From IMG/VR virus record IMGVR_UViG_2859777919_000008: 22,920 nucleotides of DNA. One strand, written 5' to 3'. The DNA is from a virus (Duplodnaviria; Heunggongvirae; Uroviricota; Caudoviricetes). Below the pieces are notes generated by a model, which searched no databases, was not told the origin of the DNA, and saw only the letters and a list, made by a program, of their open reading frames with translations. The translations under genes were made by a program, and so were the position numbers. This document shows positions 14,417 through 15,487 of this stretch, in pieces. How positions within the stretch are numbered: position 1 is the stretch's first letter; the number at the start of each line of letters is the position of its first letter.

Positions 14417-14572
14417 TTACTCACCTGAATGTCTTCCCAACCAACGACGTGCGCCAGCTTCGGTTTTAAACGTTTTGCTTTTGGTATACGTCATGGCGGT
14501 GAATGTGCCGTCCTGGTTGGGGAACACGCCGTACACCAGAGATTCGTTGTTGCCAAGATCGATAGTATTCAT
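14417..14572 (-). CDS. small prophage protein, possibly YdfA/YdaF-like; first gene of a dicB-type operon
   Basis: ORF 14417-14626; probable start at internal Met giving the 51 aa MNTIDLGNNESLVYGVFPNQDGTFTAMTYTKSKTFKTEAGARRWLGRHSGE, preceded by aagggg SD-like sequence. Sits downstream of the dicA homolog on the same strand; its stop is 13 bp from the IS600 end. Confidence 0.45.
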   Translation of the reverse strand: MNTIDLGNNESLVYGVFPNQDGTFTAMTYTKSKTFKTEAGARRWLGRHSGE

Positions 14573-14626
14573 GTTGACCCCATTTCCCCTTAACGCCGGG
14601 GTAGCGGAACTGTTTGCTGAGAACAC

Positions 14627-14775
14627 CGTGCGGTGTCTTGATGAATGAAATTTAGAATAACCTAAGGTGGGCGGTCAAGATTTTTGTGTAGAAAAACCTA
14701 AGTTTTTTTGATGTAAAAAACACAAGTGTTTGAAAGTTTGTGCTTTTTATTACAGGGTGTGGAGAAAAAAGGGGA
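14627..14775 (-). promoter_or_regulatory. putative promoter/operator region downstream of dicA
   Basis: Contains repeated cctaag(g) motifs (14661-14667, 14696-14701) and a TTGACC -35-like hexamer on the minus strand (plus-strand ggtcaa 14671-14676); analogous to the DicA-repressed dicB-operon promoter. Confidence 0.35.
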
Positions 14776-15183
14776 TTATTTGTTTGCGCTTCTTTTGCGA
14801 GCTTTGAGTAGTTCTTCAAAAAGTTTGTTGAAATTTTCAACTCGAGCACGCATCTCTGACAACAGGGCCTTTTGCTCTGACTCAGGCAGTGCGTCGAACA
14901 GTTGAAGTAACTCTTTTTGATCTTCTGTCAGAATGGCTGGCTGATTATCCGGGATCGGTTCGCCTGGTTGTTTATCTTCATCCCCAAAAAGAAGCCAAGT
15001 CGGTGAGCACTGAAGCGCTTGGCTCAGTGCGAATAATCTTTTCCCCGCCGGCTGTGTTTCATCTCTTTCCCATTGAGAAATTGTTACGTGAGCCACTTTG
15101 ACCAGCTTACCTAATGCGGCCTGAGACAGTTTTAATTTTTTACGCCTATGTAAGAGGCGAGCACCGAAGGTTTCGTTTTTCAT
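14776..15183 (-). CDS. dicA: DicA-like HTH repressor (prophage immunity repressor)
   Basis: 135 aa; ...KLKLSQAALGKLVKVAHVTISQWERDETQPAGKRLFALSQALQCSPTWLLFGDEDKQP...SEMRARVENFNKLFEELLKARKR closely resembles E. coli Qin prophage DicA. Confidence 0.85.
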   Translation of the reverse strand: MKNETFGARLLHRRKKLKLSQAALGKLVKVAHVTISQWERDETQPAGKRLFALSQALQCSPTWLLFGDEDKQPGEPIPDNQPAILTEDQKELLQLFDALPESEQKALLSEMRARVENFNKLFEELLKARKRSANK

Positions 15184-15259
15184 ATTAGGGAATTCTAATT
15201 TTTCTTGACTTAGGTTTCTCTACGATCTAGTTTCCTTAGGAAAATCTAAGGAGCTCGAT
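15184..15259. promoter_or_regulatory. divergent dicA/dicC promoter-operator region
   Basis: Perfect inverted repeat CCTTAG (15234-15239) - 6 bp - CTAAGG (15246-15251) plus an additional cttagg at 15209-15214; same motif family as downstream of dicA. Confidence 0.45.
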
Positions 15260-15487
15260 ATGTTGAAAATTGATGCTATAGCGTTTTTTGGCAGCAAAAC
15301 AAAGCTTGCCAATGCCGCAGGAGTTAGGCTGGCAAGCATTGCTGCATGGGGGGAACTGGTTCCTGAAGGTCGCGCGATGCGCCTGCAAGAGGCATCTGGC
15401 GGGGAACTTCAGTACGCCCCCAAAGTTTATGACGAATATCGTAAGGCAAAACGACCTTGGAAGGTGATTCATGAAAATCAGGCATGA
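15260..15487 (+). CDS. dicC: DicC-like Cro-type regulator
   Basis: 75 aa MLKIDAIAFFGSKTKLANAAGVRLASIAAWGELVPEGRAMRLQEASGGELQYAPKVYDEYRKAKR... closely resembles Qin DicC; divergent from dicA. Confidence 0.85.
   Translation: MLKIDAIAFFGSKTKLANAAGVRLASIAAWGELVPEGRAMRLQEASGGELQYAPKVYDEYRKAKRPWKVIHENQA

Follow-up and report, generated by a model that had tools for sequence, protein, structure and literature searches.

The region from 14,417 to 15,487 of a 22,920-nucleotide viral DNA (IMG/VR record IMGVR_UViG_2859777919_000008; this whole stretch is called the window below) is a control module, with repressor and anti-repressor, from a lambda-like prophage in decay, together with its DNA-binding sites. 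Very likely it represents the immunity region of an N-less lambdoid prophage of the DicA type, a mosaic of parts resembling Qin and Rac that insertion sequences have disrupted. As a kind of element it is ordinary and already understood, a member of a known family that, to judge by its sequence, probably has a separate immunity specificity. A first-pass annotation had described a DicA/DicC switch at this place, with repeated operators and a truncated operon. That observation as a whole is confirmed, and its four interpretive claims survived testing. All four genes (dicA, dicC, ydfA and rem) are intact, as are the two promoters and the five sites, and the same arrangement is present in the 30 contigs examined from 2876 index blocks with this exact DicC. 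The features observed in the window are listed here by position.

12451-13698, plus strand: IS911 copy, abutting the IS600 fragment and cutting it
13699-14404, minus strand: IS600 fragment, orfA-proximal end, 706 of 1264 bp (from BLAST against the IS600 copies of locus L001 and from its end sequences)
14405-14415, minus strand: stump of the second ORF of the leftward operon, ATGAACGAGAC, encoding MNE and two bases of the fourth codon (from alignment with L001)
14417-14572, minus strand: ydfA homologue (DUF1391), 51 aa, intact
14573-14645, minus strand: conserved transcript leader, with hairpin H1 at 14622-14637, the block GTTCCGCT at 14603-14610 and hairpin H2 at 14586-14601
14649-14678, minus strand: leftward promoter (dicBp/PL equivalent), TTGACC, 18-nt spacer, TAAATT, from a promoter scan
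14650-14667: site OL2, minus strand reading CCTTAG-GTTATT-CTAAAT, covering the spacer and -10 of the ydfA promoter
14686-14703: site OL1, minus strand reading ACTTAG-GTTTTT-CTACAC, upstream of the ydfA promoter -35
14776-15183, minus strand: dicA-family repressor gene, 135 aa, intact, N-terminal HTH_3, no peptidase domain
15183-15200: site OR3 (Oa equivalent), TATTAG-GGAATT-CTAATT, overlapping the dicA start codon
15205-15233, plus strand: putative dicC promoter, TTGACT, 17-nt spacer, TAGTTT, from alignment with the K-12 dicC promoter
15208-15225: site OR2 (Om equivalent), ACTTAG-GTTTCT-CTACGA, overlapping the dicC promoter -35 and spacer
15233-15252: site OR1 (Oc equivalent), perfect 20-bp palindrome TCCTTAG-GAAAAT-CTAAGGA
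15260-15487, plus strand: dicC (Cro-like) gene, 75 aa, intact
15471-15892, plus strand: ydaT-family (CII-like) pseudogene, from comparison with L001 and a Pfam YdaT_toxin match on the downstream frame
16077-17340, minus strand: complete IS600, inside the replication-initiator gene downstream of ydaT
21088-21375, plus strand: rem homologue, 95 aa

The DicA protein has the make-up of its family, being short, with an N-terminal Xre/CI-type helix-turn-helix (HTH) and without an S24 peptidase (autocleavage) domain. Pfam matched HTH families only (HTH_3, residues 13-64, E = 7.8e-14), and NCBIfam NF007257 covered residues 1-135 at 237.3 bits (cut-off 101; K-12 DicA scores 234.3). The sequence is WP_000787424.1, as annotated in L001 and L002. 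DicC matched Pfam P22_Cro (PF14549; E = 9.6e-13, 48.1 bits against a cut-off of 30.2) and NCBIfam NF007282 (149.9 bits, cut-off 130), and its gene, on the other strand, begins 76 bp away from dicA. The divergent DicA/DicC pair of the first-pass annotation is thus arranged as described, with both proteins above curated NCBIfam thresholds. The two had been called close homologues of their K-12 counterparts; the homology holds, but "close" is generous for identities of 62% (DicA) and 72% (DicC). YdfA (Pfam DUF1391, E = 3.5e-28) is 92% identical to the K-12 Qin protein and is the first and sole surviving gene of the leftward operon. Compared with L001, DicC carries two lineage-specific substitutions, D53A and G67W. 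Asp at position 53 is otherwise constant among the DicC proteins compared, which were those of the window, L001, L002, K-12, the PPompW prophages and phage mEp460. The D53A change at this conserved residue and the frameshift in ydaT are signs of decay in the module.

Three sites lie between dicA and dicC. The inverted repeat CCTTAG-GAAAAT-CTAAGG had been reported at 15234-15251; it is there, and since its arms reach 7 nt we extend it to 15233-15252 as OR1. OR1 lies directly against the -10 of the dicC promoter and shares bases with the Shine-Dalgarno sequence of dicC. It aligns with K-12 Oc, TTGTTAGTCATAACTAACAA (TTGTTAG-N6-CTAACAA), at the same position. Oc bound DicA in vivo, and a single A-to-C change inactivated it (PMC3441716), so that binding is known for the K-12 allele and, by analogy, predicted for the 20-bp repeat here. 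OR1 and OR2 are 26 bp apart from centre to centre, and OR2 and OR3 25 bp; by hand count, the K-12 spacing is 25 bp for Oc-Om and likewise for the second pair. The start of the K-12 dicC promoter was mapped by 5'RACE (PMC3441716); a simple promoter scan did not report its putative equivalent at 15205-15233. The right arm of OR1 overlaps the Shine-Dalgarno sequence AAGGAG of dicC, and its conservation could be partly translational.

Two further sites flank the -35 of the leftward promoter. A half-site CCTAAG(G) had been claimed downstream of dicA at 14661-14667 and is present. A second one, placed at 14696-14701, is also present, with coordinates one base off (the real position is 14697-14702). 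The first-pass annotation had thus listed three of the five sites and missed OR3 and OR2. The -35 hexamer TTGACC sits between OL1 and OL2 exactly as in K-12, and the two sites are 36 bp apart here and 35 bp apart in K-12 (hand count). At these positions K-12 has TGTTAG-CTATAG-CATACA (OL1) and TGTTAG-TCATGG-CTAATC (OL2). OL1 is part of an inverted repeat, I2, which is 94% complementary to OR2. Three operator-like sequences have been described at each promoter in K-12 (PMC10448788); no third site was convincingly found at the leftward promoter here. In all, the layout that marks a Qin-type module, three repeats between dicA and dicC and more downstream of dicA, is represented by five sites with the common core TAG-N6-CTA, three between the genes and two at the ydfA promoter. 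In an alignment to the K-12 Qin dicA-dicB region, the check suggested along with the original observation, the sites coincide and their spacing is near-identical.

By homology, DicA would act as a short CI-like repressor, binding as a dimer to (C/A)CTTAG-N6-CTAAG(G) palindromes. With OR1-3 in the 76-bp dicA-dicC region, DicA at OR1, next to the dicC -10, would silence dicC and, if it behaves like its K-12 counterpart, stimulate its own gene. OL1 and OL2, bracketing the -35 and covering the -10 of the leftward promoter, would serve to shut off ydfA and the lost downstream genes. DicC, the Cro analogue, would repress dicA through the same sites, which we infer would yield a bistable switch; such a switch has been described for DicA/DicC in K-12 (PMC10448788). 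A Rem homologue 6 kb to the right is a possible antirepressor. The IS600 cut has left repressor, operators, promoter, leader and ydfA in place, and no cell-division inhibitor.

It is very improbable that the repeats bind no protein and reflect chance similarity in AT-rich DNA or by-products of promoter and ribosome-binding sequences. A single 7+6+7 palindrome is expected by chance about once per 23 kb, and the CTAAGG of OR1 overlaps the dicC Shine-Dalgarno sequence. One such palindrome alone is not significant, but the set of sites is. The 22.9-kb window has five CCTAAG hexamers, and four of them fall within 600 bp around dicA. The pattern TAG-N6-CTA occurs nine times (2.3 expected), with five of the nine matches between 14653 and 15248, and CTTAG-N6-CTA six times (0.30 expected), five of them in the dicA region; neither count was reached in any of 100 shuffles. 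The layout also agrees with K-12 almost base for base, and the sites are kept together with the HTH in repressors that are 27% diverged. At loci L101 and L126 the repressors are just 72-73% identical overall, yet their N-terminal HTH region differs at one position, OR2 is identical, and CTTAG/CTAAG is retained at both OR and OL. In the PPompW prophages (94.7% DNA identity) the TAG/CTA core is retained at all five sites; of five changes within or beside the sites, three hit spacers or the -35 and two alter the outermost bases of one OL2 arm. The bases at the sites, finally, vary systematically by repressor type. Together these results already contradict the chance reading.

The variation by repressor type comes from 13 DicA-family loci, the window included, with about ten distinct repressor types. 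Nearly all have a palindrome at a constant distance from the cro-like gene, with related sites around the downstream -35; the second K-12 site matches on one arm only. Operator bases track repressor type, and where the HTH differs other palindromes stand in the same places. The earlier proposal of CCTTAG/CTAAGG operators at two promoters is in line with this pattern, as the candidate operators occupy the K-12 Oc and dicBp positions and are kept with the same HTH. Relative to the GTTAG/CTAAC of K-12, the site here differs at the second and third base of each 7-nt arm. From this two-base difference we infer that the module probably has a separate immunity specificity. Recognition helix 3 was rejected as the cause of the CTTAG/GTTAG difference, as the same helix (VAHVTISQWER) is found at L008, L012 and L104, which use GTTAG. 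The preference for C or G at the second operator position may instead be set by residue 22, which is Ala here and Arg in the GTTAG-type relatives. The pairing of CTTAG/GTTAG with Ala22/Arg22 makes a simple, naturally occurring case for testing how the outer operator bases are read by repressors of the DicA family.

A different question is how many of the five sites DicA would use. OR1 could be its sole site, the other four being left wholly or mostly to DicC, or unbound, and repression of the leftward promoter would then not be a simple two-operator affair. Of the three K-12 sites, DicA bound Oc in vivo and did not bind Om or Oa (PMC3441716), so the weaker sites OR2, OR3 and OL1, each with one poor half-site, may be non-functional or used mainly by DicC. 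ChIP-seq of K-12 DicC gave peaks to either side of dicA, with the motif TT(A/C/T)G...C(G/A/T)AA (PMC11430063). Against the restriction of DicA to OR1, K-12 dicBp was derepressed 22-fold by deletion of dicA and was unaffected by deletion of dicC (PMC10448788). This implies that DicA acts at the downstream promoter, where these sites are the sole repeats, and OL2 has a perfect left arm, CCTTAG. We therefore consider the single-site reading unlikely. Quite unlikely, too, is the reading in which the sites are true operators by descent and the module is an inert relic, with dicA silent or irrelevant and the whole too young to have decayed. Nearly all outputs are lost, with the left operon ending after ydfA, ydaT frameshifted and the replication gene split by IS600, and DicC is altered at the conserved Asp. 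Divergence from L001 is 0.5%, too little for the intactness of the 408-bp dicA to count as evidence of selection. The intactness of the four genes, both promoters and five sites, alike across the examined contigs, speaks against a relic, as does the binding of K-12 DicA and DicC to many host sites (PMC11430063). If kept as a working regulator, the DicA/DicC/Rem module may provide immunity against CTTAG-type phages, or it may control host genes.

The leftward operon was truncated by IS600. The terminus of the element had been placed at 14404 with one small gene left, and this proved correct: the operon is cut 11 bp into its second ORF. The intact ORF encodes 67 aa (MNETELKHVIALLPEDAKRL...), and the full ORF was found by tblastn in L001 and L004-L006 only; the severed copy (ATGAACGAGAC...) is not ydfB. 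Rfam gave no DicF over the window, and tblastn over the window gave no dicB, kilR, ydfB, ydfC or ydfD. These results bear out the claim that inhibitor genes of the dicF/dicB type are absent while the repressor is kept. A repressed operon with DicF and DicB, a hallmark of Qin, is missing here, where the operon ends at IS600. The operon had also been called dicB-type; that a leftward operon was cut is right, but dicB ancestry is one of several possibilities. Where relatives carry this second ORF, their left arms are of the Rac type, and the cargo lost here was therefore not necessarily dicB. In L002 the same immunity module leads into ydfB-ydfC-DicF-dicB; in the PPompW prophages, which have no ydfA, it leads into a different first gene, with ydfC and a DicB homologue. 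The DNA to the left of IS911 is not IS600, so the junction is not a simple nested insertion. An inversion mediated by IS600, considered for the minus-strand late genes on the left and a plus-strand integrase fragment past the right end, was dropped; all three IS600 copies share one orientation, which favours deletion. The flanks of the prophage remnant may be DNA of other elements.

The mosaic character of the prophage emerges from its relatives. The K-12 Qin prophage shares the order dicC, dicA, promoter, ydfA, the lengths of DicA (135 aa) and DicC, the three dicA-dicC sites about 25 bp apart and the two sites 35-36 bp apart around the TTGACC -35, the core TTAG-N6-CTAA, the ydfA leader, and a rem homologue adjoining hok/sok. 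It differs in half-site (TGTTAG, CCTTAG here), in DicA residues 20-22 (TQR, SQA here), in its right arm (ydfX/ydfW, where the window has the Rac-like ydaT, ydaV and DUF977), and in the genes that follow ydfA, as ydfB, ydfC, dicF, dicB and ydfD are missing here. The PPompW prophages of E. coli O145:H28 (e.g. LC567822) and the L002 prophage (E. coli CFSAN018748) are of the same immunity type. Their dicA-dicC DNA is 94.7-97.8% identical to the window and the five-site TAG/CTA core is conserved, but they are full length or nearly so and still have a cell-division inhibitor downstream.

The Rac-type relatives with the same second ORF are L001 (E. coli FDAARGOS_943), L004 (O121), L005 (O55:H7 DEC5A) and L006 (E9). 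They have ydfA followed by the 67-aa ORF (MNETELK...) and a right arm of ydaT, ydaV, DUF977, hok/sok and DUF1367. L001 is 99.4-99.5% identical to window positions 14402-21720, the IS600 insertion aside. In contrast to the window, left arms survive in these relatives, with DicF, KilR, YdaE, RecE and RecT in L005 and isrK/C4, Rha and YdaE in L001 and L004. L004-L006 also differ in having unrelated CI-type repressors, with operators AACAC/GTGTT or TCAC/GTGA. In the live lambdoid phage mEp460 the repressor is of the DicA family, the Cro is DicC-like, ydfA has the same leader, and both DicF and dicB are present, so the module belongs to functional phages; the mEp460 operators are different (TTGAG-N4-CTCAA). 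DicA and DicC were first likened to P22 C2 and Cro (PMC10448788), and the divergent repressor/cro logic of P22 immC matches the window. C2 differs from DicA in its greater length, its cleavable C-terminal domain and its inducibility through RecA (PMC10448788).

The right arm, which in Rac-type prophages runs ydaS/cro, ydaT, replication initiator, ydaV, DUF977, is present and damaged. A 1-bp deletion near 15508 shifts the ydaT frame after codon 13, and IS600 splits the initiator gene; ydaV and DUF977 are intact. The flanks of this IS600 are colinear with L001, with an overlap of a few bases, and it is thus a simple insertion. The left arm, which in Rac-type prophages carries kilR, ydaE and recET, is absent from the window. 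The rem product is 68% identical to K-12 Rem, an antirepressor that relieves DicA repression (PMC10448788), and the same gene in L149-L154 has a precomputed match to Rem PF27490. A putative Rem antirepressor gene in the same prophage is, by homology, a further Qin-type trait. Matches to a LexA box (CTGT-N8-ACAG, one mismatch) occur at chance frequency in the window, with none near rem.

Beyond annotation the importance of these findings is small. The lineage keeps its whole DicA/DicC/Rem switch, which has a distinct operator sequence of its own, and has lost the toxic cargo. It should escape the filamentation that derepression of this prophage would induce, and it could still exclude phages that share its immunity type.

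A small lead on gene expression in N-less lambdoid phages comes from the conserved leader of about 70 nt between the OL promoter and ydfA. Rfam gave nothing at gathering thresholds for the leader and intergenic regions and, in E-value mode over 14400-15300, chance-level matches alone (best E = 0.32). The single-sequence fold of the leader is unexceptional (z = -0.3), and RNAalifold recovered just 3 pairs from a MAFFT alignment. A pattern scan of viral contigs for the leader returned many chance matches, which were filtered by eye. An HK022 put-like antitermination RNA was rejected as its identity, as the HK022 immunity region showed no sequence similarity. The leader may regulate translation as an operator, mark a processing site or signal antitermination. 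That it is an undescribed cis-acting RNA of N-less DicA/Rac-type lambdoid phages and, jointly, that the orphan DicA/DicC/Rem set is kept as a working regulator is a tentative suggestion, which we think doubtful as a whole. The stems of both hairpins vary by compensatory substitutions, and the blocks CTCAG and GTTCCG are invariant. The same leader is found behind heteroimmune repressors and ahead of differing first genes.

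By sequence comparison, the immunity module of the window belongs to a well-described family, of which it is probably a heteroimmune member, and it lies in an IS-eroded prophage. The parts of the module are as follows, with the candidate operators, five around dicA, found by searching the window for a symmetric core.

14417-14572, minus strand: ydfA homologue downstream of dicA, 51 aa, intact (Pfam DUF1391)
14573-14645, minus strand: conserved leader (about 70 nt) that separates the OL promoter from the first gene
14650-14667: OL2, overlying a TTGACC-18-TAAATT promoter from its spacer through its -10
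14686-14703: OL1
14776-15183, minus strand: dicA-family gene for a 135-aa HTH protein, intact (Pfam HTH_3; NCBIfam DicA, 237 bits, where the cut-off is 101)
15183-15200: OR3
15208-15225: OR2
15234-15251: OR1, a perfect inverted repeat
15260-15487, plus strand: dicC, a Cro-like gene divergent from dicA, 75 aa, intact (Pfam P22_Cro; NCBIfam DicC, 150 bits against 130)

The first-pass annotation had described close, divergent homologs of DicA and DicC. Divergent layout and family membership stand, but closeness does not. Both proteins exceed the curated NCBIfam cut-offs and are only 62% (DicA) and 72% (DicC) identical to their counterparts in the E. coli K-12 Qin prophage (YdfA, 92%), making them family members rather than close K-12 alleles.

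The perfect repeat reported earlier, CCTTAG-N6-CTAAGG, is present and even longer than described, as its arms extend to 7 nt (TCCTTAG-GAAAAT-CTAAGGA, 20 bp, 15233-15252). The half-site does recur downstream of dicA, with CCTAAG at 14661-14666 and 14697-14702, and four of the five window copies surround dicA. The window holds nine TAG-N6-CTA sequences against 2.3 expected and six CTTAG-N6-CTA sequences against 0.3 expected, and neither count was reached in any of 100 shuffles. Independently, a repeat finder recognised the OL sites as inverted copies of the OR sites. OR1 adjoins a putative dicC promoter (TTGACT-17-TAGTTT), its right arm overlapping the dicC Shine-Dalgarno sequence, and a promoter scan placed the leftward TTGACC-18-TAAATT promoter downstream of dicA.

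In the Qin alignment, OR1 falls exactly at the position of the K-12 operator Oc, TTGTTAGTCATAACTAACAA. Oc and the dicC promoter -10 overlap; DicA binding to Oc was shown in vivo, and one A-to-C change inactivated the operator (PMC3441716). Downstream of dicA, both sequences have the order site, TTGACC, site; only one arm of the second K-12 site matches. Center-to-center spacings, counted by hand on both sequences, are 26 bp in the window and 25 bp in K-12 for OR1-OR2, 25 bp in both for OR2-OR3, and 36 and 35 bp for OL1-OL2. K-12 has three operator-like sequences per promoter, and deletion of dicA derepresses its leftward promoter, dicBp, 22-fold (PMC10448788). DicC ChIP-seq peaks flank dicA on both sides, with the motif TT(A/C/T)G...C(G/A/T)AA (PMC11430063), which in sequence is the TTAG...CTAA core of the window. 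Because only Oc bound DicA in vivo in K-12, the weaker window sites may by analogy serve mainly DicC or have no function.

Homologous regions of the same type keep these motifs. In L001 (E. coli FDAARGOS_943), L002 (a prophage in E. coli CFSAN018748) and PPompW (lambdoid prophages of E. coli O145:H28), at 94.7-99.5% DNA identity, the TAG/CTA core is retained at all five sites. PPompW has five substitutions in or beside sites, three in spacers or a -35 and two at the outer end of one OL2 arm. The viral contigs L101 and L126 are a more informative test. Their repressors are 72-73% identical overall, with a single difference in the N-terminal HTH region; in both contigs CTTAG/CTAAG is kept at OR1 and CCTTAG/ACTTAG at OL, and OR2 is unchanged. 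Positions matching the K-12 operators, enrichment over shuffles, and retention in relatives with a similar HTH all argue for the earlier proposal of operators at two promoters.

We also compared thirteen DicA-family loci, the window and twelve others from Escherichia, Citrobacter, Superficieibacter, Symbiopectobacterium, Rahnella and others, with about ten distinct repressor types among them. Nearly all thirteen have a palindrome at a constant distance from the cro-like gene and related sites around the downstream -35, and the bases vary with repressor type (TGTTAG, TGTTGA, TTGAG-N4-CTCAA, ATAAC-N4-GTTAT). Rac-type relatives with unrelated repressors show this pattern too, using AACAC/GTGTT or TCAC/GTGA. 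Lambdoid immunity regions typically show sites at fixed positions whose bases track the repressor, and because the comparative pattern is of this typical kind, we consider the operator reading secure at the sequence level. An identical helix 3 (VAHVTISQWER) occurs with GTTAG or CTTAG operators among the relatives. In every class examined, DicA residues 20-22 (window about 15118-15126) are TQR with (T)GTTAG and SQA with (C)CTTAG. This correlation, which is confounded by shared ancestry because there are few independent lineages, points to residue 22 (Arg or Ala) as the reader of the second operator base.

The leftward operon ends at an insertion sequence junction.

12451-13698: IS911, cutting an IS600 copy
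13699-14404: IS600 fragment, 706 bp, with the IS600 terminus at 14404
14405-14415, minus strand: ATGAACGAGAC, start of a second ORF overlapping the ydfA stop

As first annotated, the operon is cut after its first gene; the second ORF is severed at its start. DNA left of IS911 is not IS600, so the junction is a rearrangement scar rather than a simple insertion. The severed ORF is not ydfB, the full ORF encoding another protein (67 aa, MNETELKHV...). By tblastn it is found in L001 and in L004-L006, all Rac-type prophages. It is followed by DicF, kilR, ydaE, recE and recT in L005; by kilR, ydaE, recE and recT in L006, where genes alone were read; and by isrK/C4 RNAs, Rha and YdaE in L001 and L004. 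Across 14402-21720, the window and L001 share 99.4-99.5% identity. L002 has the same immunity module and then ydfA, ydfB, ydfC, DicF and dicB, whereas PPompW has that module with a different first gene instead of ydfA, then ydfC and a DicB homologue. The same module joined to different left arms places a mosaic joint just after ydfA. In L001, L002 and L004-L006 the operon continues past ydfA.

DicF was absent from the window in an Rfam scan, as were DicB, KilR, YdfB, YdfC and YdfD in tblastn searches, so the statement that any dicF/dicB-type genes are gone is correct for the window. The lost cargo could have been DicF/KilR, a Rha-type module, or DicF/DicB. The label dicB-type operon would fit just one of these options. 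Overall, the first-pass observation is confirmed and its interpretation supported, with these refinements.

Elsewhere the window contains the following.

408-12450: lies left of the IS911/IS600 scar and lacks colinearity with the prophage; holds an IS1 copy and, on the minus strand, an Rz/endolysin cassette and genes for phage head, portal and terminase
8925-10256: IS2
10691-11359 and 11470-11886: two transposase ORFs of an IS110-family ISEc20 copy
15471-15892, plus strand: ydaT-family (CII-like) pseudogene, with a 1-bp deletion near 15508 relative to L001 shifting the frame after codon 13
15970-16095 and 17315-17578: replication initiator downstream of ydaT, split by IS600
16077-17340: complete IS600 inside the replication initiator
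19769-20455, plus strand: QueH (epoxyqueuosine reductase) homologue, prophage cargo flanked by the DUF977 region and hok/sok
20513-20688: sok (Rfam, 117 bits)
20626-20838: hok (Pfam HOK_GEF), of an intact type I toxin-antitoxin locus
21088-21375, plus strand: Rem homologue, 95 aa, at 68% identity to the K-12 protein, which is the antirepressor of DicA in Qin

The ydaV, DUF977, QueH, hok/sok and Rem homologues are intact, and DUF1367 is cut at 21721 by a third IS600. As in K-12, rem lies just downstream of hok/sok. Its product had no match in our Pfam search and is assigned to PF27490 (Rem) in precomputed hits; no LexA box was found near the gene. Unlike the scar at 14404, the IS600 at 16077-17340 is a simple insertion with target duplication, because its flanks align colinearly with L001 and share a few bases. 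A simple IS600-IS600 inversion as the explanation of the layout was rejected, as all three copies have the same orientation. Beyond the right end of the window, in genomes that carry it, the third IS600 runs straight into a 147-aa C-terminal integrase fragment (17738-18181 in L150) that is 37-45% identical to Rac-type and PPompW integrases, and chromosomal ABC-transporter genes come next. With scar DNA on the left and these on the right, the left arm is adjacent on neither side.

K-12 DicA and DicC form a bistable switch with Rem as antirepressor (PMC10448788). By analogy, DicA dimers on OR1 would block dicC and activate dicA, DicA on OL1 and OL2 would block the leftward promoter, DicC would compete for the same sites, and Rem could relieve the repression. 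Since the left arm is missing, output would be limited to ydfA leftward and dicC and the broken ydaT rightward. Filamentation from this element via derepression is no longer possible. At 0.5% divergence, an intact dicA is no evidence of selection.

The one item here worth a further look is the two-hairpin leader, also present in L003, L008, L012-L014, L016, L020, L065, L101, L102, L104, L121 and L126. Its order is CATCAA, hairpin 1 (ACACC GCAC GGTGT), TCTCAG, an A-rich spacer, GTTCCGCT and hairpin 2 (CCCC GGCGTTAA GGGG), whose 3' arm is Shine-Dalgarno-like. It occurs behind heteroimmune DicA-type and Rac-type repressors and before varied first genes. The stems vary but still pair, both in hairpin 1 (ACACC/GGTGT, AATCACC/GGTGATT, AATCAC/GTGGTT) and in hairpin 2 (CCCC/GGGG, GCC/GGC, GCCT/AGGC). 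RNAalifold recovered just three pairs, two of them with compensatory changes, and the folding energy was unexceptional. No Rfam family matched the leader, and an HK022 put-like antitermination RNA was rejected as its identity because no similarity was found.

Several smaller observations concern single genes. In L001 (4888-5076) and L004 (6759-6947), the annotated Rha CDS contains isrK and C4-type antisense RNAs in its 5' portion, so its start has probably been miscalled. In L005, a copy of DicF (7154-7205) lies just upstream of kilR. The ISEc20 transposase, two ORFs in the window, is one 398-aa gene in the related loci L149 and L150. The exact window DicC sequence occurs in 2876 index blocks of public assemblies, and in the six assembly places shown the arrangement is always the same, at 99.8-99.98% identity to the window. 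Relative to L001, this DicC carries D53A and G67W (codons 53 and 67; window 15417 and 15458). Asp53 is common to the DicC homologues of L001, L002, K-12, PPompW and the live lambdoid phage mEp460, and because of this conservation D53A may weaken the window DicC.
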